A DNA stretch of 64,000 nucleotides from Peptococcaceae bacterium (GTDB taxonomy: Bacteria > Bacillota > Peptococcia > DRI-13 > PHAD01), in the NCBI GenBank assembly GCA_024655825.1, contig JANLFJ010000016.1:1086-65085 (forward strand). Direction: 5' to 3'. This document shows positions 1,576 to 47,605 of the stretch, in pieces. Position numbers and translations under genes: made by a program. The first letter of the stretch is position 1. Each line of letters begins with the position of its first letter. The notes below the pieces were generated by a model. That model had not been told where the DNA came from. It was given only the letters and a program-made list of their open reading frames with translations, and ran no database searches.

Positions 1576-2565
1576 TTAATTGACGCCCTTTTCCTTAAAG
1601 TATTTTTCCGCGCCGGGATGCAGGGGAACAGGTATGCCTTTCTTCGCCTTTTCCAGCTTGATGTCCTTGGCTGCAGAGTGAGTGCTGACAAGATCGCCCA
1701 GGTTCTCAAAGACTATCTTGGTCATGTTATAAACCAGGTCCTCCGGCATATCGTCCCTGACAACAAGAATGCTTGTAACAGCAGCCGTCGGTACATCCTC
1801 TTTATTGTCATATGTACCGCCCGGGATAGAAACGGATGTATAAAAGGGGTATTTTTCGGCCAGTTTCTCAACCGTCTTGGGTTCTATGGGTATTATCCTG
1901 ACATCATGGGTAGTGCACAGGTCAAGGATTGTAGAGTTTGGAAGCCCGGAAGTCTGGAAGGCCGCATCTACCGACCCGTTTTTCATTTGTTCGATTGACT
2001 CGGCATAAGACAAATAGTCAGGTTTAATGTCTTTATAAGTGATTCCGTAGGCCTCCAGCACCTGACGGGCATTGACTTCCGTACCGCTGCCCGGCGCTCC
2101 TACTCCCACTCTTTTACCTTTTAAATCGGCAACAGACTTGATTCCTGATTTTTCCAACGCAATCAACTGGACATAATTAGGATAAAGAGCGGCCATGCCG
2201 CGCAAATTCTTTACGGCGCCCTTGTCCTTGAAAACCTCTGTACCTGTGTAAGCGTAAGAAACCACGTCATTCATGGCGAACGCAAGCTCAGCCTTCTTTT
2301 CTCCAAGCAGTGTGCAGTTGACGGCAGAGGCCCCGGTTGACTGCACGGAAGCTTTCGCTCCGGGAATATTCTCGTTAAATAGCTTGGCCACAGCGCCGCC
2401 CAGGGCAAAATACGGGCCTGAACTTCCGCCGGTAACAATGGTGATTAACACCGGCTCTTTTGAAGCCGTCCTGGGCTGCGAATTTTTATTGGCACCTCCG
2501 CCGCATCCGGTAATAGCCATAACAGCAAACGCGGCAATCACCAGTAATCCTAGAAGCTTTTTCAA
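1576..2565 (-). CDS. TAXI-family TRAP transporter solute-binding lipoprotein
   Basis: 329 aa. Lipoprotein signal (LLVIAAFAVMAITGCGGG). The mature sequence looks like the TAXI/immunogenic-protein family. TTG start sits 8 nt after AGGAGGA. Confidence 0.85.
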   Translation of the reverse strand: MKKLLGLLVIAAFAVMAITGCGGGANKNSQPRTASKEPVLITIVTGGSSGPYFALGGAVAKLFNENIPGAKASVQSTGASAVNCTLLGEKKAELAFAMNDVVSYAYTGTEVFKDKGAVKNLRGMAALYPNYVQLIALEKSGIKSVADLKGKRVGVGAPGSGTEVNARQVLEAYGITYKDIKPDYLSYAESIEQMKNGSVDAAFQTSGLPNSTILDLCTTHDVRIIPIEPKTVEKLAEKYPFYTSVSIPGGTYDNKEDVPTAAVTSILVVRDDMPEDLVYNMTKIVFENLGDLVSTHSAAKDIKLEKAKKGIPVPLHPGAEKYFKEKGVN

Positions 2566-2708
2566 TTCATGATTCCTCCTCTTTTAATTTCAATTTTCTA
2601 ACAATAATATAATCGTAAAAAAAGGGCCTTCAAACGATTGCCTGCCGAATAACCATATTTGACCTCCTGTTGGCTCCTGCCAAACGCTGAGTGGCATTTA
2701 TCATTTAT

Positions 2709-2750
2709 AAAAAAATCAAGGCGCCAGTTCATAAATCGACCAGCGCCTTG
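2709..2750 (-). terminator. Rho-independent terminator after the LytTR regulator gene
   Basis: Minus strand reads CAAGGCGC-(18 nt)-GCGCCTTG followed by ATTTTTTT. The hairpin overlaps the last codons and stop of the regulator gene. Confidence 0.7.
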
Positions 2751-3487
2751 AATTCTTTTACCTTATAGCGGCTTACCGGTATCTCCAGCTTGGGAAGCCC
2801 GCTCACCTTCAGGAGATATGTGCCGTTAAACCAGGGAATGATTTCATTCACCTTTTTTAAGTTAACCAGGTAATTACGGTGACAGCGGAAAAAGTTTCTG
2901 TCGGCCAGTTTGCTTTCCAGGTTAAGCAGAGGCTGGTTGGCCATATACTCTTTATCAGCCGTCAGGATGTACGTCTTCTTTTCTTTGGCAATAATCACGC
3001 ATACATCTTCAGGATCAAGCAGGAACAGTTTCCCGCCCTTTTCTCCTTGAATCCGCCGGAGGGAAAACCTGTCCGGGGAGCTTTGCACTTTGTTATCCCG
3101 CTGCATGTGCCTGGTTCTTTCTCCCAGGCGTTCCCTGGCCTGTTTCAAAACAGCCCTGATTTCCTCCCTGGAGAAAGGCTTGAGGACATAACCGACCGCG
3201 TTCACCTTGAAGGCTGCTATGGCATATTCCTCAAAGGCAGTCACAAATATGACCAGGGGCGGTCTGCTCTCGTCCATAACCAGGCGGGCTGTCTCCATCC
3301 CCGTTGTTCCAGGCATATTAATATCCAGAAAAACTATATCCGGCCGCAATCTCTTGATTTCGTCAGCTGCTTTATGACCGCTGTAACATTCGCCGACCAC
3401 TTCCAGGTCATTCTCCATTTCTAAAATATACCTCAGTTCATTGCAGATTAAGGGCTCGTCATCGGCCAGAAATACCTTGTATTTCAT
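2729..3487 (-). CDS. LytTR-family response regulator (REC + LytTR DNA-binding domain)
   Basis: MKYKVFLADDEPLICNELRYILE...DIVFLDINMPG receiver domain. C-terminal LytTR-like segment (FFRCHRNYLVNLKKVNEI). The ORF track starts 5 codons earlier at 3502. Confidence 0.9.
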   Translation of the reverse strand: MKYKVFLADDEPLICNELRYILEMENDLEVVGECYSGHKAADEIKRLRPDIVFLDINMPGTTGMETARLVMDESRPPLVIFVTAFEEYAIAAFKVNAVGYVLKPFSREEIRAVLKQARERLGERTRHMQRDNKVQSSPDRFSLRRIQGEKGGKLFLLDPEDVCVIIAKEKKTYILTADKEYMANQPLLNLESKLADRNFFRCHRNYLVNLKKVNEIIPWFNGTYLLKVSGLPKLEIPVSRYKVKEFKALVDL

Positions 3488-5186
3488 CATCTCCACTCCC
3501 ATTTACCTGCGGAAGATGTAAAATGACCCTTGTCCCTTTCCCCGGGGCGGTTTCAAAGGTACAGCCAGCCCGGTCCCCGTAAAGCAGTTTCAGGCGCTGC
3601 ATGATATTGTTCAGCCCTACTCCCCCATGCTCCGTTCTTTGCCCCTTCCTGATTCTTTCCAGTGTACCTGCTTGAATACCGGCGCCGTTATCAATGACTT
3701 CAATCTTCAGGAATTCAGATTCCAGAGAAGTTTTTACTTCAATACGGCAGTCAATCTCTTTTTCGATGAAACCATGACGCAGCGCATTTTCAACAAGAGG
3801 TTGTATGGAAAAAACAGGAACCAGGCAGTCTTCCGTATGATCCCCTATTTCAATTCTTACCTGCAGCTTGCTGCCAAAACGAACCTTGTTAATGAATAAA
3901 AAGTCATCAACAGCCTCCAGTTCATCATGTAACGGTACAAGGTCGTCGTTTTCCCTAAGCCTGCGTCGCAGCAGTCTGGAAAGGTGAAGAAGCAGTTCAC
4001 GCGCCTCCTCCGGCTTGGACCGGCAGCAAGACATGATTACGCTTAAGGAATTAAACAAAAAATGCGGGTTGAGTTGAGCCTTCAGCGCCGAAAACTCGGC
4101 ACGGGCCAACAGCTTGCTTTGTTCGTTCAACTGGGCAATTTCTAACTGCAGGCTGAGAAGATTGCCGATTCCTTCCGCCAGTTTCAAATCAACATCGGTA
4201 ATCTTATCCCCGTTGCTGTTAATAATGCTGAATGTTCCGACAATCTCGTCTCTACTCCACAACGGTACCACTATGGCACTGGAAAGAGGGCACTGCGGGT
4301 CGTAACAGCCGAGCAATTCCTTTTGATGTGCCACCTGCCTGGAACCACTGTTCAACACATCAAGAACGACCTGTGCTGCAACAGGTTGCCCAGTCCTATG
4401 ATGGTCGGACCCCTGGCCGGCAAAAGCCAGTACTTTTTCTTTGTCGGTAATGGCTACCGCAGCCGCCTTCGTCTCGGAAAGGATGATTTCCACAACCCTG
4501 GTTGCAGTTCCGGCATTTAACCCTTTTCTTATGACAGGCATTGTCTGGCTCGCAATCTGGAGAGCTTTTTCAGCGTAGGACGCACCTACTCTCAGGTGTT
4601 CCTTGCGCACATTTTGGACCATCATCACAAAAATAGTAACCCCAATGGAATTGACCATTATCGTCGGCACGGCAATAGTCCTTTCCAGAGTCAACGCCGC
4701 GGAAAAAGGTTTCGCCAGCAGGAGAACCAGTGCTTTCAGGATTGCTTCAGACAATAAACCGGACAGCAGGGCGGTTTTTCCACTTATATTCCTGGGGCCT
4801 TTTACCAGGTAAAAGCAGCTGCCCACAAGTCCGGCAAAAACATTGCCAACAGCGCAGGCCCAAGCAGTAAAACCGCCCAAAAACAGCCTGTGTAATCCCC
4901 CAATAAGTCCTGCGCTTATCCCAACCATTGGTCCAGCCAGCAGCCCTCCAACCACTGGGGCAATCATCCGGTTATTGGCCAGGGCGCCCATCACGGGAAT
5001 CCCCAGGTAATTGCCGGCTATGGAGAGCAGGCCAAAAATAACCGCCAATAGCGCTTTGTCTTTTAGGTTGGCTTCACCTTCCAGGGCAAGACGCAATGGC
5101 CTGGTATGAATCAATAAATATGCTGTAAGGGCAATTAATGCCATGTTTTTCAGCAGTTCTATCAAAAGCTGAAGAATACTGCCCAC
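3459..5186 (-). CDS. LytS/YehU-family sensor histidine kinase (5TM-LYT + GAF + His_kinase + HATPase)
   Basis: 575 aa. N-terminal multi-TM region, central GAF-like region, LNPHFLFNSL H-box typical of LytS-type kinases, C-terminal G-boxes (DNGAGI, GGVGLNN). The exact start is uncertain because the GTG at 5186 abuts the SD. Confidence 0.9.
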   Translation of the reverse strand: MGSILQLLIELLKNMALIALTAYLLIHTRPLRLALEGEANLKDKALLAVIFGLLSIAGNYLGIPVMGALANNRMIAPVVGGLLAGPMVGISAGLIGGLHRLFLGGFTAWACAVGNVFAGLVGSCFYLVKGPRNISGKTALLSGLLSEAILKALVLLLAKPFSAALTLERTIAVPTIMVNSIGVTIFVMMVQNVRKEHLRVGASYAEKALQIASQTMPVIRKGLNAGTATRVVEIILSETKAAAVAITDKEKVLAFAGQGSDHHRTGQPVAAQVVLDVLNSGSRQVAHQKELLGCYDPQCPLSSAIVVPLWSRDEIVGTFSIINSNGDKITDVDLKLAEGIGNLLSLQLEIAQLNEQSKLLARAEFSALKAQLNPHFLFNSLSVIMSCCRSKPEEARELLLHLSRLLRRRLRENDDLVPLHDELEAVDDFLFINKVRFGSKLQVRIEIGDHTEDCLVPVFSIQPLVENALRHGFIEKEIDCRIEVKTSLESEFLKIEVIDNGAGIQAGTLERIRKGQRTEHGGVGLNNIMQRLKLLYGDRAGCTFETAPGKGTRVILHLPQVNGSGDDEIQGISGR

Positions 5187-5192
5187 TCCCTT

Positions 5193-6008
5193 TCAATACT
5201 CAGGCGGCAGTTTTTTCAGCTGCTCCAGCGTAAAGACGGGTCCATCCAGGCACACATAGAGGCTTCCAATGTTGCAGCGGCCGCACTTGCCGATACCGCA
5301 TTTCATGCGCATCTCCAAGGTGGTGATGACGTCGGCGTCGTTAAAGCCCATCCTGGCCAGGGCCTGGAGGACGAATTTAATCATGATCGGCGGGCCGCAG
5401 GTAATGGTGGTCATGGGCTTGAAGCCCAGTTCCTCCACATAGGCGGGAACAAAGGCCACATGCCCCGTCCAACCCTCTTCCGGCCGGTCGATGGTCGTAT
5501 AGACCTCCATGTTTTCCACCTTCGGCCAGTTTTCGAAAAGGTCTTCCTTGAAAACCAAGTCGGCCACGGAACGCGCGCCGTAAACCACATACATTTTCCC
5601 GAATTCCGCCCTGTTTTCAATACAATGGTTGATAAGACTGCGGACCGGCGCCAGTCCTATACCGCCGCCGATAAAGAGCAGGTCCTTGCCCTTGAGATAA
5701 TCCAGCGGAAAGCCGTTGCCGTACGGTCCCCTGATGCCGCATTCCTGCCCTTCCTCCACCTGGTGAAGCGCCCCTGTCAGCTGGCCCACTTCCTTGATGG
5801 CAAGCTCCAGGTGATTTGGTCCCTGGGAAGTGATGGAAAACATGGCTTCGCCTGCCTGGGGCAGGGATAACATGGCCAGCTGTCCCGGTTTCGGAGCAAA
5901 CGGCTTTTCCCCGCCGGTGGTGCTGACATGAAATGTTTTTACATCCGGAGTTTCCTGAACAATCTTTATTATCCTTCCCCGTATGGGAACAAGAGGGTTG
6001 GCATTCAT
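5193..6008 (-). CDS. flxA: FlxA-like FAD/NAD(P)-binding oxidoreductase with C-terminal 2Fe-2S (PyrK/HydG/AsrB family)
   Basis: 271 aa. GGGIGLAP nucleotide-binding motif and C-terminal CGIGKCGRC cluster motif. Last gene of the hdr-flx cluster and overlaps flxB by 4 nt. Confidence 0.8.
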   Translation of the reverse strand: MNANPLVPIRGRIIKIVQETPDVKTFHVSTTGGEKPFAPKPGQLAMLSLPQAGEAMFSITSQGPNHLELAIKEVGQLTGALHQVEEGQECGIRGPYGNGFPLDYLKGKDLLFIGGGIGLAPVRSLINHCIENRAEFGKMYVVYGARSVADLVFKEDLFENWPKVENMEVYTTIDRPEEGWTGHVAFVPAYVEELGFKPMTTITCGPPIMIKFVLQALARMGFNDADVITTLEMRMKCGIGKCGRCNIGSLYVCLDGPVFTLEQLKKLPPEY

Positions 6009-7003
6009 TCAACCTCCGCCTCCTTTATTTTCCGAATAACGGCGGTAATGTCCATGTTCACCGGGCATTTGGCTAGGCAGCGGCCGCAGCCCGTGCAAAG
6101 CAGCTGGCCGTAACGTTCCACAAAATAGCTGAGCTTGTGCATGAACCGGTTGCGAACCCGCTCCTTTTTGGTGGGACGCGGGTTATGCCCTCCCGCCATG
6201 CGGGTGTATTCCGAAAACATGCAGCTGTCCCAGCAGCGGAACCTGTAGCCCTCTTCCCCTTTGACCTTGCCGGATACATCAAAGCAGTGGCAAGTCGGGC
6301 AAAGATAGGTGCAGAGCGCACAGCCCAGGCACTTGCGGCTCACTTCCTCCCAGACCGGGTGGTCAAACATCCGGGAGAGCTTTTCCGGCACGCCCTCAAC
6401 CTCCACCTTGAGCTTAAACTCTTCCGCCGGCAGGGGCGACGCTCCTGTTTCATGTAAAACATCCCCGTATTTGGCCAGCAGTTCTTGGCCGGCTGCCGTC
6501 CTGGCTTTAAACCCCCATTCCGCGCCCAGGTCCAGCACCTGAAGGTCTACCCCCACCGCTTCCTGGGGATTCAAGCCCATCGACTGGCAGAAGCAGGTGT
6601 CCCCAACGGCAGTGCAGGCCAAGCCCACCAAAAGAGTGTTTTCCCGTTTATTCTTGTAAAAGGCGTCCTCGTATCCCCGGCTGAGGAAAACCTTGTCCAG
6701 GCAGTCAATGCTAAAGGCGTCGCAGGAACGAATCCCGAAAACGACCTGCTTTTCCTTTTGTTCCGCTATTTCTTCTATCTCCAGCTCGTTCCCCGCAGCC
6801 CGGAACTTATACATCTTTTCCGTCTGCGGGAAAAAGATGTCCTTGGGAGGCAGCAGCGTGTTCATTTCCAGGTACAATTCCCGTTCTTCCTGATAAGGCG
6901 CGAATTTGCCCGTCCCGTTCTCCAGGTAGGGTACATAAACCTGGAAGTCCCGGTTCATTCTCCGCAGCAGTTCGTTCAAGCGTTTCTTCTCAATAGCCAG
7001 CAT
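6005..7003 (-). CDS. flxB: FlxB-like iron-sulfur protein (sulfhydrogenase beta/AsrA-like, 4Fe-4S dicluster)
   Basis: 332 aa. Motifs CLGCALCTYLCPTCHC and CTGCGRCLAKCP. Position in the cluster supports the call. Confidence 0.75.
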   Translation of the reverse strand: MLAIEKKRLNELLRRMNRDFQVYVPYLENGTGKFAPYQEERELYLEMNTLLPPKDIFFPQTEKMYKFRAAGNELEIEEIAEQKEKQVVFGIRSCDAFSIDCLDKVFLSRGYEDAFYKNKRENTLLVGLACTAVGDTCFCQSMGLNPQEAVGVDLQVLDLGAEWGFKARTAAGQELLAKYGDVLHETGASPLPAEEFKLKVEVEGVPEKLSRMFDHPVWEEVSRKCLGCALCTYLCPTCHCFDVSGKVKGEEGYRFRCWDSCMFSEYTRMAGGHNPRPTKKERVRNRFMHKLSYFVERYGQLLCTGCGRCLAKCPVNMDITAVIRKIKEAEVE

Positions 7004-7016
7004 TCAGCGCCACCCC

Positions 7017-7904
7017 CTACATGAACTTTTCGGGGTCATCCAGCTCAAAGCGCCCCAAGGGCGTCTTTTTCTCCGGATCGAGCCCGGCGGGTTCTTCCCC
7101 GAACAATTCTTCAATATCGTTGATTATCTTCCTGTTCAGGGCCATCAGTGGAATGTTCACGGGACAGGCCCGCTCGCATTCGCCGCATTCTATGCACCTG
7201 CCGGCCACATGAATGGCCCTGGTCAGCTGCATGAACTGGTTTTCGACCAGATTGTTGGCCTTGCCCAGCCACTCCGGCACAGCCCTGTCGAAAACGCATT
7301 CCCGGCAGTTGCAGGCCGGGCAGATATTCCTGCAGGCGTAACAGCGTATACAGCGATTAAATTGTCCTGCCCAGAACTCGTAGCGTTCATCAGGCTTCAT
7401 CTTTTCCAGCCTTTCGATAAGCTCTCTCGTCTCTCGACCCCGCTCAACCGCAGGCACTTTTTCGCCCAGCAGCAGGTCGTAAACCACCGGGTTGGGGAAC
7501 CTGCAATCCTGGCATTTCACTGCGCCGTTTATTTCATCGCCCCAATTTTTGCCTGCCGCGTCATCAGGATCCTTCAACCCTGGGCATGGAATCCCGATAA
7601 TATATAATTGTTCTCTTTTCACCTGGTTGTCCTGGATCAAGCGGTTGACGCCGCGGCTGTCGCACCCTTTCACGAACAGGGCTACCTTGCCGTCGACAGC
7701 AGCCAGGTCCAGCAGGTACTTGGAAAGGTTATTGTGGCAGAATTCATCAAATACGAGCCTCTCGACATCTTCAACTTTGTCAATGAAGGTGGGGGCTGAC
7801 TTGTACCAGGGATAACCCTTTTCCCAGCCCAAAACAAGGGCAACCTGGCCGCTGCTCAGGAGTTCCCGGGCTGTGTCGCGCATTTTTTGAGTAATTTCTT
7901 TCAT
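7017..7904 (-). CDS. flxC: FlxC-like iron-sulfur protein (4Fe-4S dicluster)
   Basis: 295 aa. Motifs CIRCYACRNICPACNC and CIECGECERACP. Overlaps flxD by 4 nt. Confidence 0.75.
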   Translation of the reverse strand: MKEITQKMRDTARELLSSGQVALVLGWEKGYPWYKSAPTFIDKVEDVERLVFDEFCHNNLSKYLLDLAAVDGKVALFVKGCDSRGVNRLIQDNQVKREQLYIIGIPCPGLKDPDDAAGKNWGDEINGAVKCQDCRFPNPVVYDLLLGEKVPAVERGRETRELIERLEKMKPDERYEFWAGQFNRCIRCYACRNICPACNCRECVFDRAVPEWLGKANNLVENQFMQLTRAIHVAGRCIECGECERACPVNIPLMALNRKIINDIEELFGEEPAGLDPEKKTPLGRFELDDPEKFM

Positions 7905-8359
7905 TCCGGATCCCTCATCTTCCTGTTCGGCCCCATGGCCTTTATCTCTTCCACCAGCTGTGTCACGACCTGCTGGAATTTGGGTCCTTCCGAGCCGGAA
8001 ATCCAGCGAACCTGGAAACGCTGGGGATCAATGCCCATGTATTCCAGCAAACGCTTGGTCAGCAGGTAGCGCCGGCGTGTAAAATAATTGCCGGTGCTGT
8101 AATGGCAGTCTCCCGGGTGACATCCCGCCACCAAGACACCGTCCAGCCCTTTTTGAAACGCGCGGATCACAAACTGGGGGTTGACCCGCCCGGAACAGGG
8201 GACCCGCAAAATGCGGATGTTGGGCGGGTACTGGAGCCTGCTCAAACCGGCCAGGTCCGCGCCTGCATAGGTGCACCAGTTGCAGGCAAAAACAAGTATT
8301 TTAGGTTCCCATGCCTTTTGCCCCGTTCCCTGTTTTTCAGCATTCAATCCTACAGACAT
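7901..8359 (-). CDS. flxD: MvhD-like (methyl-viologen-reducing hydrogenase delta subunit) protein, FlxD
   Basis: 152 aa. Motifs FACNWCTYAGADLAG...CSGRVNP...GCHPGDCHY are typical of MvhD. Overlaps hdrA by 10 nt. Confidence 0.85.
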   Translation of the reverse strand: MSVGLNAEKQGTGQKAWEPKILVFACNWCTYAGADLAGLSRLQYPPNIRILRVPCSGRVNPQFVIRAFQKGLDGVLVAGCHPGDCHYSTGNYFTRRRYLLTKRLLEYMGIDPQRFQVRWISGSEGPKFQQVVTQLVEEIKAMGPNRKMRDPE

Positions 8360-10329
8360 AACGCATCCACCTCCGCCAGGATCTGTTCATTGGTGAATCC
8401 TTTCAGGTTCAGGGCGCCGGAGCGGCAGGCCACAGTGCACGCCCCGCAGCCCTGGCAAAGACCCGTGTTAACGGAGGCCACCTGGCGTTCTCTTGTTTTC
8501 CCGTGAACCCGCTCGGAAATTGTTTTTAATTCTATGGCCTTATACGGGCAGATGGAGATACACAGCCCGCAGCCGGAACAGACGGCCTCGTTCACGGCCG
8601 AAACAACCGGTTCGGTCGGCATTTCCTCCCTGCTCAAAAGGGCGCATACCTTGGCCGCCGCGGCGCTGGCCTGGGCTACGGAATCCGGGATGTCTTTGGG
8701 CCCCTGGCATGTCCCGGCCAAATAGACGCCAGCCGTATGCGTCTCCACTGGCCGCAGCTTGGGATGTGCCTCAGTGAAGAAATCGTGCTGGTCATAGGAA
8801 ATGCCCAGTTTGCGGGCAAGTTCGCCGGCATCCCCGCGGGCGACCATGGCCGTGGCCAGCACAACCATATCGGCCTCCACCTCCACCGGCCTGCCCAGCA
8901 GGGTGTCTTCGCCGCGCACGATCAGTTTGCCGTGGCTCTGGTAGATTTTCGATACGCGGCCTCGCACGTACTGGACACCGTATTCATTGACCGCCCGCTG
9001 GTAGAACTCGTCATAATTCTTGCCGGGAGTACGCACGTCCATGTAAAAAACGATGGCCTGCGAATCCTTGATTTTTTCCCTGACCAGCGTGGCATGCTTG
9101 GCTGTGTACATGCAGCAGGTCTTGGAACAGTAAGGTTTACCCTTGGCCTCGTCGCGGGAACCTACGCACTTTACAAAAACCACGGTTTTTGGCTCTGTGT
9201 GGTCGGAGGGCCGCTTGATTTTCCCCATTGTAGGGCCGGAGGCGTTAATCATCCTTTCAAAGTGCAGCCCGGAAATAATGTCTGGATACCGGCCGTAGCC
9301 GTATTCGCCGTACACGCTCTCGTCAAAAAGGTCAAAGCCTGTAGCCACGACAATCGCCCCGTAGCGAACCGTTTCCAGGCGGTCTTCCTGTGTATAATCG
9401 ACGGCGCCGGTGGGACACACCTTCTGGCAGACCCCGCATTTACCGGTTTTAAAATAAAGGCAGTTCTCCCTGTCAATGACCGGCTTGTTCGGAACAGCCT
9501 GGGGAAAAGGCGTATAAATCGCCTTGCGCGTCCCCAGCCCCATGTCGAATTCGCTGGCAACCCTGGTCGGGCATTTTTCCCAGCAAGTGCCGCACCCGGT
9601 GCACTTGTTCATATCAACCGAACGGGCCTTATGGCGAATGGTTACATCAAAATTCCCCACGTAACCGTCGACTTTTTCCACTTCACAGTAAGTCAGCAGG
9701 TTGATGTTCGGATTGCTGGCCGCATCAACCATCTTAGGAGTCAGTATGCAGGCCGAACAGTCCATGGTGGGAAAGGTCTTGTCGATCTGGGCCATCCTGC
9801 CGCCGATGGTCGGCTCTTTCTCGACGATGTCCACCACATAACCGGCATCGGCAATGTCCAGGGCTGCCTGGATACCGGCAATGCCCCCGCCGATCACCAG
9901 GGCCCTTTTGTGGATGGGGATACTTGACCTGCTTAAGGGTTCGTTCTTTAACACCTTGGCCACAGCCATCTTCACCAGGTCGAAGGCCTTGGCCGTCCCT
10001 TTCTCCTTGTCTTGGTGAACCCAGGAACACTGCTCGCGGATATTGGCCATCTCCAAAAGATACGGGTTGAGACCGGCCTTTTCCAGGGTTTTGCGGAAGG
10101 TCGGCTCATGCATGCGCGGTGAGCAGGAAGCCACCACAACCCTGTCCAGCCTGTGCTCCTTCACGGCATTGATGATTACCTGCTGCCCGGGTTCGGAGCA
10201 CATGTACTTGTAATCAGTGCTGAAGGCCACCTGGGGAAGTCCCCCGGCCATCTTGGCCACTTTTTCGCAGTCAACCGTCTGGGCAATGTTGGTTCCACAA
10301 TGACAGATAAAAACCCCGACTCGTTTCAT
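8350..10329 (-). CDS. hdrA: Heterodisulfide reductase subunit A-like flavoprotein
   Basis: 659 aa. N-terminal FICHCGTNI motif, FAD fold VIGGGIAGIQAALDIADAG, and several CxxCxxCxxxC(P) clusters (CTGCGTCWEKCP, CGVCQKVCP, CSGCGLCISICP, CQGCGACTVAC). Confidence 0.92.
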   Translation of the reverse strand: MKRVGVFICHCGTNIAQTVDCEKVAKMAGGLPQVAFSTDYKYMCSEPGQQVIINAVKEHRLDRVVVASCSPRMHEPTFRKTLEKAGLNPYLLEMANIREQCSWVHQDKEKGTAKAFDLVKMAVAKVLKNEPLSRSSIPIHKRALVIGGGIAGIQAALDIADAGYVVDIVEKEPTIGGRMAQIDKTFPTMDCSACILTPKMVDAASNPNINLLTYCEVEKVDGYVGNFDVTIRHKARSVDMNKCTGCGTCWEKCPTRVASEFDMGLGTRKAIYTPFPQAVPNKPVIDRENCLYFKTGKCGVCQKVCPTGAVDYTQEDRLETVRYGAIVVATGFDLFDESVYGEYGYGRYPDIISGLHFERMINASGPTMGKIKRPSDHTEPKTVVFVKCVGSRDEAKGKPYCSKTCCMYTAKHATLVREKIKDSQAIVFYMDVRTPGKNYDEFYQRAVNEYGVQYVRGRVSKIYQSHGKLIVRGEDTLLGRPVEVEADMVVLATAMVARGDAGELARKLGISYDQHDFFTEAHPKLRPVETHTAGVYLAGTCQGPKDIPDSVAQASAAAAKVCALLSREEMPTEPVVSAVNEAVCSGCGLCISICPYKAIELKTISERVHGKTRERQVASVNTGLCQGCGACTVACRSGALNLKGFTNEQILAEVDALCL

Positions 10330-35181: not shown

Positions 35182-35380
35182 ATAAAACCCCACTATGCCG
35201 TGGGGCCGTTGTTTTGAACCTGCTCTCGGCAGGTGGGTACCCTCCCGGCTGCTTTTTGCTTCCTGTCTCGGCAGGCCTGCAAGCCACAGCCAGAGTCCGG
35301 GTTCCCGATGTAAAGGTGTTGGCTCAAAACTAATCGGCTCTTTCACACGGGCACCGCAGGGTACGAGGATATCCTTCGCA
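35182..35380 (-). ncRNA. ssrS: Candidate 6S RNA (SsrS)
   Basis: About 200 nt non-coding gap downstream of aspS, as with B. subtilis bsrA. By hand it folds into three parts. The closing stem is GUUUUGAGCC/GGUUCAAAAC, extended by GCCG/CGGC. The central bubble has about 14 nt on each strand. The irregular terminal stem is GGG-ACCC-CUGGCUG...CAGCCGG-GGGU-CCC. The UGAGCC and GGUUCAA elements echo E. coli 6S. The element ends in the terminator CCCCAC-ggcata-GUGGGG-UUUUAUU. Confidence 0.6.
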
Positions 35381-41189: not shown

Positions 41190-43370
41190 TTACTTGTGCG
41201 GGGTAACCCGGAATACGTCGACCACGTCTTTTACTCTTTTAACTTTTTCTTTTATCTGGTTGAGCTGGCTGAGGCTGCGGATCTCAATCTTCAGGTTGAC
41301 CGTAGCCTGGCTGTTGCGAGTTGCGCGCGCCCGCACGGCATTGATCGGCACCTTCATATCGGCGATTGTGTTCATGATATCCGTGGTCAGCCGGGAACGA
41401 TCCGCAGCCAGGACCTCGATTTCCACCTGGTACGTGCTTTCGCTGTTCTCGTCCCAGGCCACGTCTACAATGCGGCCCTGTTCTTCCTGCATATGATAGG
41501 TGATATTCGGGCAATCGCAGCGGTGAACGGAGACTCCCCGTCCCCGCGTAATATATCCGACTATTGAGTCCCCGGGGAGAGGGTTGCAGCAGCGGGCAAA
41601 GCGGATCATCACATCGTCCGCGCCGCGCACGCGTACTCCCTGCTGCGCTCTGCCGTAATCAGGCGCTCTTTTTGCTTCCGTGATAAATTCGGGAAAAAGA
41701 GTATCTTCCTGCGGTTTTTTAAGTTTAAGCAGGTCGTCTTTTAACCGGGTAATAACCTGCAGGGGGCTGATCGCGCCTTCTCCAATGGCCGCCAGCAAAT
41801 CTTCGGGCTGGTGCATGCTGAAGCGCTTCACTATTTCTATAAACCTCTCCGCTTTAAAAAGCTCAACCGGGTCAAGGCCCTGTTTCTTAAACTCTTTTTC
41901 CAGCAGTTCCCGGCCGCGCTGGATATTCTCGTCTTTTTGTTCCTTTTTAAACCACTGCCTGATCCTGTTTTTAGCCTGCGAAGTATTGACCATCTTCAGC
42001 CAGTCCCTGCTGGGACCGCCGGCCTGCTTGGAAGTCAGTATTTCCACAATGTCGCCGTTTTTCAAAACATAATCAAGCGGCACGATCCTGCCGTTCACTT
42101 TTGCGCCTATGCAGCGATGACCAACATCCGAATGAATCCTGTAGGCAAAATCAATCGGTATGGACCCTGCCGGCAGTTCAATCACGTCGCCCTTGGGCGT
42201 AAAGACGAACACCACATCGGAAAAAACATCTATCTTTAAGGTTTCCATGAATTCTTTCGTGTCCCGGACCTCGGTCTGCCACTCCAGTATTTGCCTGAGC
42301 CAGGCCAGCCTTTTTTCAAAATCCTTGCTGCCGCCTTTCGCGCCTTCTTTGTATTTCCAGTGGGCGGCAATTCCGAACTCCGCCGTCCTGTGCATTTCCA
42401 GGGTGCGTATCTGTATTTCAAAGGGTTCCCCCTTGTATCCCATGACCGTCGTGTGAAGAGACTGGTACATATTAGGCTTGGGCATGGCGATGTAATCCTT
42501 AAACCTGCCGGGGATCGGTTTCCAAAGGGTATGGATTATTCCCAGGGTGCCGTAGCAGTCCTTGACGCTTTCTACTATCACTCTCACAGCTATCAGGTCG
42601 TAAAGCTCATTTAAATCGCGGCCTTTTTCTTCCATCTTTTTATATATCGAATAAAAATGCTTGGGTCTGCCCTGGATGTCGGCCTTAATGCCTACTTCCG
42701 CCAGTTTTTCCTTCAGTTTGGCGATGACTTCCTGGATATAGACCTCGCGTTCCTGCCTTTTCATCGTGATCCTGTTTGAAAGGTCATAGTATTTATGCGG
42801 CATGAGGTAGCGGAAAGACAAGTCTTCCAGCTCCCATTTGAAAGCGAATATGCCTAAGCGGTGGGCAAGCGGAGCAAATATTTCTAGCGTCTCCTCGGCA
42901 ATCTCTTTTTGTTTCCATGCCGGGTGGTGTTCCAGTGTCCGCATATTGTGAAGCCGGTCGGCCAGCTTGATGAGGATGACGCGAATATCCTTGGCCATAG
43001 CCAGGAACATCTTGCGCAAGTTTTCGACCTGCTGTTCCTCCTTGGTGCGGAATTCTATCCGGCTTAACTTGGTAACCCCGTCCACAAGGTAGGCCGTCTC
43101 TGCTCCAAAGTTTTTTTCGATTTCGCTTAAAGGAACCTTTGTGTCCTCGACCACATCATGGAGAAGAGCAGCGGTAATGGTGGGGAGGTCAAGTTCCAGG
43201 CGGGCCAGCAAATAGGCCACCGCAAGAGGGTGGGTAATATAGGGTTCCCCCGAATTCCTCACCTGCCCTGCATGGGCTTTCAGGGCAAACTCGTGAGCAT
43301 TTTTCACCATATTCAATTCGCTCTCCGGGATATACTTTTTTAACCTTTCCACCAGTTCTTCGAAAGACAA
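41190..43370 (-). CDS. relA: Bifunctional (p)ppGpp synthetase/hydrolase Rel
   Basis: 726 aa. HD hydrolase (HPLAVA...LHDVVEDT), synthetase, TGS and ACT regions are recognisable. Confidence 0.96.
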
Positions 43371-43390
43371 CTATTACACCACCATATTTA

Positions 43391-46300
43391 TCATCTGCTG
43401 TGCAACCTTAACCCTTTCCCGGGAATAATGGGCTTATTGACTGCCGCCAGTATTTCCTCGCTGTTTTCCTGCAGAGCGAAAGCGGAAAACTCCTGGAACT
43501 CCTCCCATTCGCCGAGTCCCTCCAGGTAGCGTACCGAATCGCTAAGATCAAGCTTTCCGGGTGGCGGGGGCGCGAAATGAATTTGGCGCCTGTTTCCTTC
43601 CATTTCCCGTAAAACCAAGCCGAGTTCCTCCAGGATGGCAAGACAGGCCGATGCCGTTTGCTCACGGAAATTCTTTAAACCTGCCGCCTGCATGGCTTCC
43701 TTTATTTCGGCATTTGTAACCTGCAGCGGATTGGCCTTCTGGGCCATTTCCCTCAAGTAAAGATACACCTTTCTCAGTACCTCCCTTGAGGGAGCGGCAT
43801 TTTCCAGAATCAACTCGTTCAGGGCTTTGTCTTTCTCTCCAAAAAGAATATGGATATAGGCCTCCGCGCCGTCACGACCTGCGCGGCCTGCCAGCTGGTT
43901 AAACTCTGCCCGGGAAAAGCAGAGGTGATAAAGGACAACGTGCTTGATGTCGGGTATGTCTATCCCTTCGCCGAAGGCACTCGTTGTGACCATTACCCGC
44001 AGCGCCCCCTGGCGGAACATGTCCTCCAGGGTTTTTCGGTATTCGCGGTTCAAACCGCCGTGGTAGAATGCTATTTCCTCCCGGGCCGGCGGGTAAAAAA
44101 GGCGGAGATCGCCTGCTAACTGGTAGGCCTGTTTTCTGCTGTTTACATAAATTACAATCCTCTCCCCGCCGGAAACAAGGTTGATAAGATAAGCCAGTTT
44201 GTCTTTTTCCTCCCGCCTGTCAACCAGGCGAAGATTAACCCTGGTATGCTCTTCAACGATGACCCGCTCGCAGGATAAGGCATCGACAATTGCTTGGCCG
44301 GTTTCATCTCCGGCTGTTGCGGTAACCGCCAGCGCCTGCGGTGAGCCGAGCTCGCGCCAGGTTCCCGGCAGCAGCCTGTATCCCCGACGCTTGCCGCAGG
44401 CCAAGTGGTGGGCTTCGTCAACCACAAGAAGCCCCAGAATGCCGGAAACGCTTTTGAATTTCTCCCGGTGATAAGCAAGAAATTCGGGAGTGGTCAGCAC
44501 AATATCGATATTTCCCTGGATCATTCGATGAAAAAATTGCCTTTTTTCTTCGATGCTGGCGGCGCCGCTTATTGCTTCCACCATTACCCCCAGGCCGGCC
44601 ATCTTTGGCCAAAGATGCTGCAGCTGATCGTTGAGCAGGGAGCGTAAGGGATAAACAATAACTGTAACCTGTCTTCTCACCAGGGCGAAATAGGCGGACA
44701 CACTCTGGAAAACGGCGGATTTACCCCTCCCGGTCGCAAAAACAACCAGTGAATTGTGCCCCGCTTTTAAGGCCTCGATGGCTTCCCTTTGTTTTTCGCG
44801 GTAGCCGTTTTTCCCTAAAACCGCCTGCCTGATCCTCTCCTCTATTTCCCCGGGCTGGAGACGGGCGATTTGCCGTCTTTTTTCTTCAAGACTGGCCGGG
44901 TCTGTCTCCAGCCCGGTTTTTTTTATGCAGATATTAACACCCAGGCTTTTCCTTTCACAACCTGTAACCCGGACAACGAAAGCCTCATAAAGAACACCCC
45001 TGTCCAGGGCGGGAGCCAGGTTGCGCGCCAGGCGGGAGTTCAAATAGCCGATGCGCACGCCCTGCCAGAAAACGGCAACAGCATGGCGGTCACAGGCGTT
45101 GCCGGCTTCACGCCTTATTTCCACGCTATCGCCATCCTGGATGTCCTTGATAACATCCTGCCGGTTTTCAAAAGTCACCCCGGCAAGTTTCGTGAAAAAT
45201 TCTTCGCGATTAACGACATCCCGGTAAAAATCGTCCTCCAGCCAAACTTGGCCTTCCTGGTAAAGACGATCCAAAAAAGATGCGGGCTGAAAAGGGTCGT
45301 CCCTATCCCGGCTGGATTTCAGGTGTTTTATGACCAGCTGCAATTCAGTTCGCCCGTTATAAGTATTAATATCCGGATAAAAAGCCACGTCGCACCTGTC
45401 CCAGGAGTCTACCAGCTCTTTTAAACTTCCTTTTTGAAAAGCAATGCCGTCCAGCCAGCCGTTTTCGCCGAGCAACCGCAGTTTGAGATGCGCTCCTCCG
45501 GCGCCCACCTTCCGGCAGTTCACGAGCTGCCGGGCTCTCAACACTAAAAGCGGACTAGCATTATGATAACCGAAAGGAGCCATCATTGCAATCTCCTCAA
45601 CCAAACCAGGAGTCAAATCTTGACAAGATACTTCGCAGTCCGCGTTGATCACCGGGACCATGTCTTTTTCCTGCAGAACCTCCCCGGCAAATCTCTCCAG
45701 GGTCTCTTTCAAGGAGGGTACCTGCTCCTGCCGCACTGATAAACCCGCCGCCATTTCATGCCCGCCGAAAGTAAGCAGCATCTCCTTGCCGTATTCGAGA
45801 GCCTCGTAAAGGTTAAATCCCGGAATGCTCCTGCCCGAACCTTTCCCCAGGCCCTTCTCCAGGCTGATCATTATCACCGGCCGGTAATACTTTTCAGCCA
45901 GGCGCGAGGCCACAATCCCGATTACTCCTGGATGCCAGCCTTCGGATGCAAGGACGATAACTTTTTCTTCGGAAAGGTCCACCTGGTTCTGCACCATAGC
46001 CTCGGCCTGTTTCAGGATTCTCATCTCCAGGTTTTGCCTAGCCCTGTTCTCCTTATCCAGAAATGCCGCCGCTTCCCTGCACCGCTCCTCATCCTCCGCC
46101 AGGAGCAGCTCCACTCCCAGGTCCGCCCTGCCCAAACGCCCGCAGGCATTAAGACGCGGCGCCAGGATAAAGCCGGCCTGTTCCGCCGTAATATCTCTCC
46201 CGGCCGTGCCGCACACTTCCATGAGGGCTGCCAGCCCCGGGCGTTTCCCCTGCCGGAGCAGGGGAAGCCCTTCCTTGACAAGTATCCTGTTCTCGCCGCA

Positions 46301-47011
46301 CAGGGGAACAATATCGGCAATCGTGCCCAAGGCCACCAGGTCCAGGTACTCTTCACACATTTTTTCATTCCCGAACATACAGGATACAGCCTGTCCAAGT
46401 TTAAACGCGACCCCCACGCCGGCCAGGTTAAACCAGGGATATTCTTCCCCGGCCAGTTTTGGATTGACCAGTGCCTGAGCCTTGGGCAAAATCGGCGGGG
46501 GCTGGTGATGGTCTGTAATAACCACATCCAATCCCAGCTGCGCAGCGTATTCCGTTTCTTCGACCGCAGAGATGCCGCAGTCGACGGTTAGGACCATCCC
46601 CGCTCCCCTGTCCCTTATTTCCTCTAAGGCCTGTTTGTTTAACCCGTACCCCTCGTCCAGGCGGGCAGGGATATAATAATCGACTTTACCCCCCAGCCTT
46701 CGCAAAAGCTGTACAAGAAGCGCAGTAGAAGTAATGCCGTCTACGTCATAGTCCCCGTAAATGCTTATGTGTTCGCTCTTCCTTACAGCTTCAAAAACCC
46801 TTTCCGCGGCTTGCTTCATACCCGGTATCTCCAGCGGGTCCCTCAAATCGTTAAAAGAGGCGTATAGATAAGCCCTCGCTTTCGCTGGAGAGTCAAAGCC
46901 CCTGTTAATTAGGATCCCGGCCGCAGTCGGGGAAATGCCCAGTTGGCTGGCCAAGTGCGCTGCTTTCTCGTTTTCGGTTTTGCCTACGCGCCAGATGCAT
47001 TTTTCTTGCAT
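43391..47011 (-). CDS. recJ: RecJ single-stranded-DNA exonuclease fused to a HIRAN-like domain and a RecQ-like DEAH helicase
   Basis: Single uninterrupted ORF. RecJ motifs: GDYDVDG, ITDHHQP, GGHEMAAG. HIRAN-like block (about nt 45196-44930): KLAGVTFENRQ...REAGNACDRHAVAVF..GVRIGYLN. Helicase motifs (about nt 44812-43835): ATGRGKS, VVDEAHH, VTATA, QLAGRAGRDG. The ATG at 47011 has AGGAGA 5 nt upstream. The track uses the TTG at 47029. Confidence 0.9.
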   Translation of the reverse strand: MQEKCIWRVGKTENEKAAHLASQLGISPTAAGILINRGFDSPAKARAYLYASFNDLRDPLEIPGMKQAAERVFEAVRKSEHISIYGDYDVDGITSTALLVQLLRRLGGKVDYYIPARLDEGYGLNKQALEEIRDRGAGMVLTVDCGISAVEETEYAAQLGLDVVITDHHQPPPILPKAQALVNPKLAGEEYPWFNLAGVGVAFKLGQAVSCMFGNEKMCEEYLDLVALGTIADIVPLCGENRILVKEGLPLLRQGKRPGLAALMEVCGTAGRDITAEQAGFILAPRLNACGRLGRADLGVELLLAEDEERCREAAAFLDKENRARQNLEMRILKQAEAMVQNQVDLSEEKVIVLASEGWHPGVIGIVASRLAEKYYRPVIMISLEKGLGKGSGRSIPGFNLYEALEYGKEMLLTFGGHEMAAGLSVRQEQVPSLKETLERFAGEVLQEKDMVPVINADCEVSCQDLTPGLVEEIAMMAPFGYHNASPLLVLRARQLVNCRKVGAGGAHLKLRLLGENGWLDGIAFQKGSLKELVDSWDRCDVAFYPDINTYNGRTELQLVIKHLKSSRDRDDPFQPASFLDRLYQEGQVWLEDDFYRDVVNREEFFTKLAGVTFENRQDVIKDIQDGDSVEIRREAGNACDRHAVAVFWQGVRIGYLNSRLARNLAPALDRGVLYEAFVVRVTGCERKSLGVNICIKKTGLETDPASLEEKRRQIARLQPGEIEERIRQAVLGKNGYREKQREAIEALKAGHNSLVVFATGRGKSAVFQSVSAYFALVRRQVTVIVYPLRSLLNDQLQHLWPKMAGLGVMVEAISGAASIEEKRQFFHRMIQGNIDIVLTTPEFLAYHREKFKSVSGILGLLVVDEAHHLACGKRRGYRLLPGTWRELGSPQALAVTATAGDETGQAIVDALSCERVIVEEHTRVNLRLVDRREEKDKLAYLINLVSGGERIVIYVNSRKQAYQLAGDLRLFYPPAREEIAFYHGGLNREYRKTLEDMFRQGALRVMVTTSAFGEGIDIPDIKHVVLYHLCFSRAEFNQLAGRAGRDGAEAYIHILFGEKDKALNELILENAAPSREVLRKVYLYLREMAQKANPLQVTNAEIKEAMQAAGLKNFREQTASACLAILEELGLVLREMEGNRRQIHFAPPPPGKLDLSDSVRYLEGLGEWEEFQEFSAFALQENSEEILAAVNKPIIPGKGLRLHSR

Positions 47012-47041
47012 GCTTATCTCCTGTTCCAAATATGTCGCTAT

Positions 47042-47066
47042 GAAAAAAGAGACGGGCGTCTCTTTA
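47042..47066 (-). terminator. Rho-independent terminator after the LapA-like gene
   Basis: Minus strand reads AAAGAGAC-gccc-GTCTCTTT followed by TTTCAT. Confidence 0.7.
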
Positions 47067-47100: not shown

Positions 47101-47472
47101 TTATCCTTCGTTCTCTGATTTCGCCTCAACAGCGGCTCCGGTTGTTGATTCCACCGCCGCCTCCTTTTTCTCTTCTTTTCCTTTAAGTCTCTCCAGTTCT
47201 TCTTCAAGCTTTTTGGCTTTCTTCTCAAACTCCGCCTTGTCATGGCTCAACTGCCGTATTTTCATCCAGGCGTCCACACGTTTAAACAACCCCAGAAAAT
47301 AAAGGACCAGGGCGCCTGCCGCCGCCGCGCCCAGCAATACCAGGACCAGGGAAACAGAAAACGACCAGGTTATGAATTTTATAACTACCACTTCCGTATT
47401 CTGAACGGCAAAAATAGCCACCAGCAACGAAAACACCAGCGCGCTGATCAAATAAAACTGCATTCTCACCAT
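47101..47472 (-). CDS. LapA-domain (DUF1049) membrane protein with charged coiled-coil tail
   Basis: 123 aa. Two TM helices (FAVQNTEVVVIKF... pattern), then a K/E-rich C-terminus. Confidence 0.75.
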   Translation of the reverse strand: MVRMQFYLISALVFSLLVAIFAVQNTEVVVIKFITWSFSVSLVLVLLGAAAAGALVLYFLGLFKRVDAWMKIRQLSHDKAEFEKKAKKLEEELERLKGKEEKKEAAVESTTGAAVEAKSENEG

Positions 47473-47563: not shown

Positions 47564-47591
47564 AAAAAAGCCGCCGGCCAACACCGGCAGC
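47564..47591 (-). terminator. Rho-independent terminator after secF
   Basis: Minus strand reads GCTGCCGG-tgttgg-CCGGCGGC followed by TTTTTTAT. Confidence 0.75.
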
Positions 47592-47605
47592 CAGCAGTTT
47601 ATAAC

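Follow-up and report, generated by a model that had tools for sequence, protein, structure and literature searches.

The window analysed here, a stretch of 64,000 nucleotides (nt) from the Peptococcaceae contig JANLFJ010000016.1 (assembly GCA_024655825.1), carries in the slot normally held by recJ a single minus-strand gene whose product reads as a RecJ nuclease, a HIRAN domain, a RecQ-like helicase and a conserved C-terminal module joined in one polypeptide. The open reading frame is uninterrupted from either of two starts, TTG at 47029 or ATG at 47011, to the stop codon at 43391-43393; the ATG is preceded 8-9 nt upstream by GGAG, a ribosome-binding site, and homologues start at the same point ('MxxxxIW'), which gives a protein of 1,206 amino acids (aa). 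A protein 100% identical to it is held by NCBI, from a Peptococcaceae metagenome-assembled genome (MAG), under the bare label 'RecJ'. The gene and the parts of its product, in the order of translation, are as follows.

43391..47011, minus strand: fusion gene, a single open reading frame of 1,206 aa plus the stop codon
45323..46933, minus strand: RecJ core, residues 27-563 (TIGR00644, Pfam and motifs)
46322-46771, minus strand: DHH, residues 81-230 (Pfam)
45686-45967, minus strand: DHHA1, residues 349-442 (Pfam)
45323-45640, minus strand: RecJ_OB, residues 458-563 (PF17768, E 1.4e-26)
45203..45322, minus strand: linker L1, residues 564-603, with the conserved helical motif FLDRLY...LEDDxYRD (in the family, FLDRLx...LxDDxYRD)
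44933..45202, minus strand: HIRAN, residues 604-693 (PF08797, E 5.9e-12, 45.7 bits against a cut-off of 24.7)
44834..44932, minus strand: linker L2, residues 694-726, with a mean column conservation of 0.47, the lowest among the segments
43868..44833, minus strand: RecQ-like superfamily 2 (SF2) helicase core, residues 727-1048 (Pfam, NCBIfam and motifs)
44306-44797, minus strand: DEAD, residues 739-902 (Pfam)
43868-44200, minus strand: Helicase_C, residues 938-1048 (Pfam)
43394..43867, minus strand: C-terminal module, residues 1049-1206, comprising the last helicase strand (IHILFGEKD), a helical hairpin (APSRE), a winged helix, the motif KLDLSDSVRY and two helices

The Pfam matches (DHH, DHHA1, RecJ_OB, HIRAN, DEAD and Helicase_C) all exceed the gathering score. 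Within the RecJ half, residues 27-563 match positions 2-545 of the 546 in the NCBIfam recJ equivalog model TIGR00644 with 565.9 bits against a cut-off of 396.9, and DHH motifs I-IV (GDYDVDG, TVDCG, TDHH and GGHEMAAG) are all found and are at least 95% conserved in 120 homologues. These matches place the RecJ half as a full member of the RecJ equivalog family, from which a 5'→3' exonuclease activity on single-stranded DNA is to be expected. A preliminary description of this DNA, made from its letters alone, had recognized RecJ motifs and an OB-like end in residues 1-570, which Pfam, TIGR00644 and the 120-homologue alignment confirm; the other motifs it quoted are likewise found and conserved in the 120 homologues, and its domain boundaries are correct to about 10 residues. 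The linker L1 that follows is helical in the AlphaFold2 model, and its profile also matches the N-termini of the stand-alone HIRAN-helicase proteins P0144, P0157 and P0158; L1 is part of the helicase module, not of RecJ.

A HIRAN domain had been proposed at residues ~612-700 and is borne out both by PF08797 and by a profile of the family's HIRAN segments, which matches the HIRAN structures of HLTF (E 2e-8) and the bacterial stand-alone HIRAN lp_0118 (3k2y; E 8e-8); as a single-sequence phmmer query against the PDB, the segment is too weak to find them (HLTF, E 1.5). HLTF HIRAN clamps single-stranded DNA between Tyr72 and Tyr93 (PMC4666394), and the corresponding pocket is largely preserved in the fusion family: N638 and D641 ('N-x-[YHF]-D') recur in 116 of the 117 HIRAN-bearing homologues, the position of F614, which aligns with Tyr72, is Phe in 110 of them, and that of residue 640, which aligns with Tyr93, is His, Tyr or Phe in 112 and occasionally Asn. 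The window protein alone among HIRAN-bearing homologues has Cys at residue 640 (TGT, window 45092-45094, minus strand), which may be either a genuine variant with weaker base stacking or a consensus error of the MAG one transition away from TAT.

The helicase core conserves SF2 motifs 0 (YREKQ; Y..KQ), I (TGRGKS), II (DEAHH, of the DExH form), III (TATA) and VI (QLAGRAGR, QxxGRAGR), and a sequence search gives RecQ catalytic cores as its best solved relatives (4tmu, E 9e-31). For residues 566-1206, an AlphaFold2 model (predicted local distance difference test, pLDDT, 86; predicted template modelling score, pTM, 0.72) returned from Foldseek, as its top matches, the RecQ cores 4tmu, 1oyw, RECQL5, WRN and BLM (E 1e-23 to 1e-19), with bacterial RecQ cores aligned over ~520 columns, the region past the motor included; a Foldseek search against viral structures gave just generic RecQ-like or SF2 helicases. 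The two RecQ family models, TIGR00614 and TIGR01389, are the best NCBIfam helicase matches, both under the cut-off (recQ_fam, TIGR00614, 167.3 against 219.8; recQ, TIGR01389, 178 against 640). The aromatic-rich loop of RecQ, WGHDFR in the 4tmu alignment, is replaced by 'ACGKRRGYR' (family consensus 's.R.gYk.L'); residues 1049-1206 contain no conserved Cys that could form the Zn-Cys4 site of the RQC region, where AlphaFold2 places a helical hairpin instead; and Pfam finds no HRDC match in the window protein, whose chain ends ~60 residues past the winged helix. HRDC is also missing from some accepted RecQ paralogues, so its absence is not decisive. In a neighbour-joining tree of helicase plus tail, drawn without support values, the fused clade stands apart from the canonical RecQ outgroups. 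Because of the sub-cut-off scores, the missing zinc cysteines, the degenerate aromatic-rich loop and the lack of HRDC, we rejected a bona fide RecQ identity and class the helicase, by these sequence features, as RecQ-like and as a separate clade outside the RecQ family as curated. The SF2/RecQ-type motifs that the preliminary description had located at residues ~740-1065 thus stand as evidence of a helicase, one that is RecQ-like and not RecQ proper.

A separate AlphaFold2 model of the last 158 residues (pLDDT 90) has a helical hairpin, then a winged helix and then two more helices. In the larger model this tail would occupy the position of the RQC region in RecQ, with the winged helix placed as in the RecQ catalytic core. 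Searched alone with Foldseek, the tail model found only weak, generic winged-helix (MarR-like) matches, and a tail profile found no match among PDB sequences.

The three-part architecture is widespread. A collection of 5.8 billion proteins holds at least 120 clusters of it at 90% identity, 117 of them full length (~1,200 aa) and nearly all with the same Pfam architecture; homologues reach down to 43% identity, and in the 120-protein alignment the catalytic motifs of both enzymes are each at least 80-95% conserved. Cultured strains with closed genomes encode the fusion (Thermincola potens JR, with the T. potens orthologue ADG82069.1, T. ferriacetica, Thermanaerosceptrum fracticalcis and Natroniella sp. 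ANB-PHB2), as do Peptococcaceae, Frackibacter (Halanaerobiales) and Armatimonadota MAGs, and it spans several Bacillota classes; those members that carry a name are all annotated merely as 'RecJ'. A scan of genome contigs with the C-terminal-half alignment, which relied on generic peptide patterns, had no fusion locus among the matches listed, though it supplied recJ-recQ loci as well as L022 and L028, described below. The window is part of a MAG contig, in which a frameshift or an overlooked stop codon could have merged two or three neighbouring genes into just such a reading frame. An artefact of assembly or annotation is nonetheless ruled out by the continuous architecture in at least 120 independent clusters and in the closed genomes of T. 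potens JR, T. fracticalcis and Natroniella sp., and the linkers carry conserved motifs; we regard its chance as negligible. The question of spread that the preliminary description had posed is accordingly answered by these clusters and by closed isolate genomes with the same gene order.

The presence of HIRAN is variable. An exhaustive HMMER search with the C-terminal half covered 1.84 billion representatives at 50% identity; domain profiles derived from the family served to classify the best 150. About 55 of these 150 have the order RecJ-HIRAN-helicase-tail and about 40 have RecJ-helicase-tail without HIRAN (P0045, for example, is a clean HIRAN deletion); a few are stand-alone L1-HIRAN-helicase-tail (~640 aa) or helicase-tail (~500 aa) proteins, and the remainder are fragments. 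HIRAN is therefore optional, being absent from several sub-lineages. The rough neighbour-joining tree has several independent losses of HIRAN and has stand-alone copies, those of phages among them, nested among fused ones, and on both points it is suggestive only.

The surroundings of the gene are those of a housekeeping recJ. Its nearest neighbours are the following.

47101..47472, minus strand: small LapA-domain membrane protein, upstream neighbour (PF06305, E 2.5e-12)
41190..43370, minus strand: relA/spoT, downstream neighbour (TIGR00691, 832 bits)

The order of genes in the window is ruvA-ruvB-...-queA-tgt-yajC-HD-secD-secF-lapA-like-[fusion]-relA-dtd-MBL-hemZ-hisS-aspS-6S RNA, and T. ferriacetica has the identical order tgt-yajC-HD-secD-secF-fusion-relA-dtd-MBL. 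Coordinates and profile matches to the neighbours agree with the earlier view of one uninterrupted open reading frame in the canonical recJ slot (secDF ... recJ-relA-dtd), as well as with the reported absence of apt between recJ and relA: relA begins 20 nt past the fusion stop, and dtd follows it. At the matching locus Brevibacillus (L038, recJ 3920-6277) and Listeria (L040, recJ 2408-4759) have an ordinary recJ followed by apt, and in Listeria, where the order is secDF-lapA-recJ-apt-relA, a LapA-domain gene likewise stands between secDF and recJ. The guanine-cytosine content and skew of the fusion gene are continuous with those of its flanks. Terminator-like hairpins on the minus strand lie at 47040-47065 and 47569-47592, one past secF and one past the lapA-like gene, the latter just ~30 nt from the fusion start codon. 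Transcription of the fusion may come from read-through or from a weak -35/-10 match that lies within the lapA-like gene at 47129-47100. Elsewhere in the window, a full-length 6S RNA (Rfam RF00013, 103 bits) lies downstream of aspS at 35183-35365 on the minus strand, and an HdrA2-like heterodisulfide reductase subunit (870 bits, under the cut-off of 1100) at 8350-10329 on the minus strand is consistent with anaerobic metabolism of the Peptococcaceae type.

The helicase module also exists on its own. Stand-alone HIRAN-helicase-winged-helix genes lie in phage or phage-plasmid replication modules (L033:5003-7974, L034:6968-9944 and L030:265-2193), with Cro/CI-type regulators and PHROG families as neighbours in L030 and L033, and with a partition protein and a DnaD-like loader close by in L034, a 58-kb IMG/VR contig. 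Directly upstream in both L033 and L034 stands a phrog_10048 protein with a short ExoX-C/QSregVF_b-like motif, which may be a conserved partner. At L031:1-2533 and L032:3-2532, a SecF C-terminus is followed directly by a stand-alone HIRAN-helicase-tail gene (633 aa) and then by a hydrolase, and the recJ slot there is without a RecJ domain.

These phage and phage-plasmid contexts of the L1-HIRAN-helicase-tail module, together with the nesting of stand-alone forms among fused ones, would suit a mobile or defence nuclease-helicase, in which a phage-derived HIRAN-helicase cassette was inserted into recJ and acts against foreign DNA. Such a role is made very improbable by the vertically conserved housekeeping operon of normal composition in which the fusion lies, by its apparent replacement, rather than supplementation, of recJ at the locus, and by its span across several Bacillota classes. 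A defence island was similarly rejected on housekeeping synteny and normal composition.

By analogy with its families, the fusion is probably the housekeeping RecJ of this lineage, built as a single-chain nuclease-helicase that would couple unwinding to degradation of the 5' strand. The helicase would load on the 3'-ended strand at a DNA end, a gap or a stalled fork and translocate 3'→5' into the duplex, where the winged helix would separate the strands or bind the duplex; the displaced 5'-ended strand would then thread into the tethered RecJ and be degraded 5'→3', leaving a 3' single strand for RecFOR/RecA loading. This would be the same reaction as that of free RecQ and RecJ with SSB, the protein that binds single-stranded DNA, and the tether is mechanically sensible because a 3'→5' motor and a 5'→3' nuclease on the displaced strand travel the same way. 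RecJ degrades single-stranded DNA 5'→3', and SSB stimulates both RecJ and RecQ (PMC4846377, PMC4663267); RecQ, which moves 3'→5', is needed if RecJ is to resect blunt or 3'-tailed ends, and this resection is stimulated by SSB (PMC4846377).

Independent links between RecJ and RecQ-type helicases count in favour of such coupling. At 21 loci (L001-L016, L018, L019, L021, L023 and L025), mostly of Bacteroidales, recJ shares a strand with a canonical recQ and stands directly upstream of it; the two open reading frames abut or overlap (~4100-7900 per locus; L046 included), and an annotated record from Parabacteroides has the recJ end at 3144 and the RecQ start at 3154. Two Clostridia loci (L017 and L020) have recQ and then recJ. 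All of these loci were retrieved for containing both signatures; they are evidence that many species have the arrangement but give no measure of its frequency. In a Chthoniobacterales MAG (L026:1496-5319) a gene for a RecG helicase (with wedge domain, DEAD, Helicase_C and RecG_dom3_C) follows recJ on its strand, which makes a further recJ-helicase adjacency with a different helicase.

For HIRAN, we propose somewhat tentatively, at a little under even confidence, that it captures a free 3'-OH end, for instance on the 3' tail at a break or on the nascent leading strand at a fork. In this way it would direct the enzyme to the junction or anchor it there, and would choose and protect the strand that is to be kept. 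Because several sub-lineages lost HIRAN, this role would be that of an accessory targeting device. HIRAN is best understood in the fork reversal driven by HLTF (PMC4666394), and its presence raises the possibility that the fusion is mainly a fork remodeller, in which HIRAN holds the 3' end of the nascent leading strand, the motor regresses or unwinds the fork, and RecJ only trims the nascent lagging strand, with break resection secondary. The stand-alone HIRAN-helicase modules beside DnaD-like loaders in phage replication modules fit this possibility. So does a 1999 study by Courcelle and Hanawalt, which reportedly concerns blocked forks. That study is cited for the requirement of the RecF pathway for RecJ with RecQ (PMC4846377), and in B. 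subtilis RecJ and RecQ are present at active forks through SSB, which brings RecJ, RecQ and RecS/YpbB all to forks (PMC3000357). RecQ-type enzymes, however, are single-strand translocases, unlike the double-strand SNF2 translocases that drive fork reversal by HLTF, and about 40% of the fused representatives among the best 150 are without HIRAN. We consider a predominant role at forks unlikely, and it would overlap with the coupled unwinding and degradation proposed above rather than exclude it.

Several observations weigh against a coupled, HIRAN-guided enzyme as we propose it. The repeated loss of HIRAN implies that this domain is not essential to the core reaction, and the Cys that stands in place of Tyr93 may weaken the HIRAN pocket of the window protein. 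The sub-cut-off RecQ score, the lack of a canonical aromatic-rich loop and the absent zinc site leave room for a substrate preference that may differ from that of RecQ. Moreover, polarity, unwinding and coupling to the nuclease are each attributed through family membership only.

The tail offers a further view of the fusion and its history. PF10141, the C-terminal domain of the Bacillus-type long RecJ, has no HMMER match in the window protein itself; it matches the tail in 6 of 31 family members (E <= 0.01, best E 1e-7) and is over the cut-off in the full-length proteins P0102 and P0112. In the Brevibacillus RecJ (785 aa) PF10141 covers residues 568-778. An hhalign comparison of five long-RecJ tails with fusion residues 564-1206 gave a probability of 97.4% and E 1.2e-11 over 212 columns, with reversed and column-shuffled controls at E 0.2-0.5; further comparisons of long-RecJ tail and fusion gave E 1.8e-10 and 7e-7, and canonical RecQ aligned with the long-RecJ tails over the same region more weakly (E 3.6e-5). 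The alignment of the five tails spans fusion residues ~925-1188: it opens where the second RecA-like lobe begins, takes in the motif V/VI region, the 'IHILFGEKD' strand, the hairpin and the winged helix, and reaches the KxDLxxSxRY motif, with most of the signal coming from hairpin and winged helix; the putative lobe remnant alone is weak (E 0.002, probability 14%) though in register. The solved long RecJ, PDB 8y30 (757 aa), matches the long-RecJ tail profile with E 4e-27. Its own tail gives no significant match when compared singly with the fusion profile (E 0.2, equal to the reversed control), and 8y30 is absent from the Foldseek top 50 of the tail model; the link of the fusion tail to 8y30 is only transitive, through the long-RecJ profile. 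Profile comparison thus identifies the fusion tail as homologous to PF10141, and the second helicase lobe is probably homologous to part of PF10141 as well. The last ~150 residues, which the preliminary description had left unassigned, can accordingly be assigned to a hairpin, a winged helix and two helices of PF10141 homology.

Other RecJ proteins carry parts of the same extension. A Thermotogae MAG encodes a RecJ of 1,073 aa (L022:2233-5451, plus strand) whose 490 extra residues align to the whole helicase and tail (probability 99.3%, E 3.4e-20, 442 columns) with Walker A, DEAH and motif VI all destroyed; Pfam detects no helicase in it, and it looks like a RecJ fused to a pseudo-helicase. 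A Syntrophomonadaceae RecJ (L028, 820 aa) retains a remnant of the second lobe plus the tail (E 3.2e-12), Oscillospiraceae RecJs (~690 aa) retain the hairpin and winged helix only (E 6.6e-6; a second example is weak, 6e-4), and the Monoglobus RecJ (570 aa) has none of the tail. On the simplest reading of these alignments, which is an inference, the fusion is old and many lineages keep decayed remnants of it. The series would run from the active fusion to a dead helicase (L022), then to a second lobe and winged helix (L028 and Bacilli), then to a winged helix only (Oscillospiraceae) and finally to the bare core, and its direction from active to inactive is indicated by the full-length helicase with dead motifs in L022.

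A tail kept without an ATPase, as in lineages with an inactive helicase (Thermotogae, L022) or with second lobe and winged helix (the PF10141 of Bacilli), suggests a non-catalytic role in binding or recruitment. The aromatic-rich loop, which in RecQ couples ATP hydrolysis to unwinding, is moreover degenerate in the fusion, and D. radiodurans RecJ binds the tail of SSB through its C-terminal domain (PMC4846377). On these grounds the helicase half might, with no duplex unwinding, raise the processivity of RecJ on single-stranded gaps, either by translocating along single-stranded DNA and removing SSB or secondary structure in front of RecJ or simply by tethering RecJ to DNA or SSB. Motifs I, II, III and VI, at least 80-95% conserved in the fusion family, argue for a working motor, and the fold matches RecQ catalytic cores, including the predicted position of the winged helix used in strand separation; we judge the absence of unwinding to be quite unlikely.

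Taking the coupled nuclease-helicase together with the decay series, we also entertain a broader hypothesis, to which we give slightly less than an even chance: that the RecJ-helicase fusion is ancestral in Bacillota and some neighbouring phyla, that the PF10141 tail of Bacillus, Listeria and 8y30 is a fossil of a RecQ-like helicase, and that the living fusion is a 3'-end-guided, single-chain motor for resection and fork processing. If this is true, one bacterial chain would unite the end capture by HIRAN known from HLTF with the coupling of a RecQ helicase to a 5' nuclease known from BLM/Sgs1-DNA2. The relation of PF10141 to the C-terminal half of the helicase provides a concrete hypothesis for an uncharacterised domain in RecJ of the B. 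subtilis type.

The architecture of the fusion is already visible in domain databases, and the RecQ-RecJ partnership and covalent nuclease-helicases are already known. A full-text literature search, which did not cover subscription journals, found no paper on the fusion, on a bacterial RecJ-HIRAN or on PF10141, and the open literature is thus consistent with the earlier statement that the enzyme has not been characterized. In the RecF pathway, RecQ and RecJ form the textbook pair of helicase and nuclease, yet a physical link between them has been elusive. The conserved natural fusion provides strong genomic evidence that a RecQ-type helicase and RecJ act as one machine, with which the Bacteroidales operons agree, and it offers a ready single-chain enzyme for structural and single-molecule study of how unwinding and degradation are coupled. 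It also puts bacterial HIRAN into a defined repair context, in which the reading of 3' ends can be tested beyond eukaryotic HLTF/Rad5. Because databases name the fusion proteins just 'RecJ', genome repair inventories overlook a helicase, and organisms that have it may be mis-scored as without RecQ-type activity.

Among known systems, coupling of unwinding to degradation by one polypeptide or complex is familiar from WRN (RecQ plus a 3'-5' DEDD exonuclease), Dna2, AddAB/RecBCD and B. subtilis DinG. As a matter of general knowledge, the fusion differs from these in its nuclease family (DHH/RecJ), in its expected polarity (5'→3', on the displaced strand) and in the order of its domains, and to our knowledge none of them joins RecJ, a RecQ-like core and HIRAN. 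The RecQ and RecJ (plus SSB) of the RecF/RecFOR pathway in E. coli, D. radiodurans and B. subtilis belong to the same enzyme families and have the same expected polarities; the fusion differs in being covalently joined, with HIRAN in between, and in drawing its helicase from a separate RecQ-like clade, and in D. radiodurans no direct contact of RecJ and RecQ was found (PMC4846377). The recJ-recQ operons of Bacteroidales bring the same two functions together, with only a few bases from recJ stop to recQ start (L003, L010 and L046), but as separate genes, with a canonical RecQ that falls in the outgroup of the tree and with no HIRAN. The Bacillus-type long RecJ (~760-790 aa, with PF10141, 'ssDNA-exonuc_C') occupies the same locus, secDF-lapA-recJ-...-relA-dtd, and its RecJ core is 38-45% identical to that of the fusion, but it has no first helicase lobe, helicase motifs or HIRAN and hence cannot be a motor. 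HLTF and Rad5, finally, resemble the fusion in carrying HIRAN N-terminal to an SF2 motor, whereas the motor of the fusion is RecQ-like, of the single-strand translocase type, and not SNF2, there is no RING, and a nuclease is attached.

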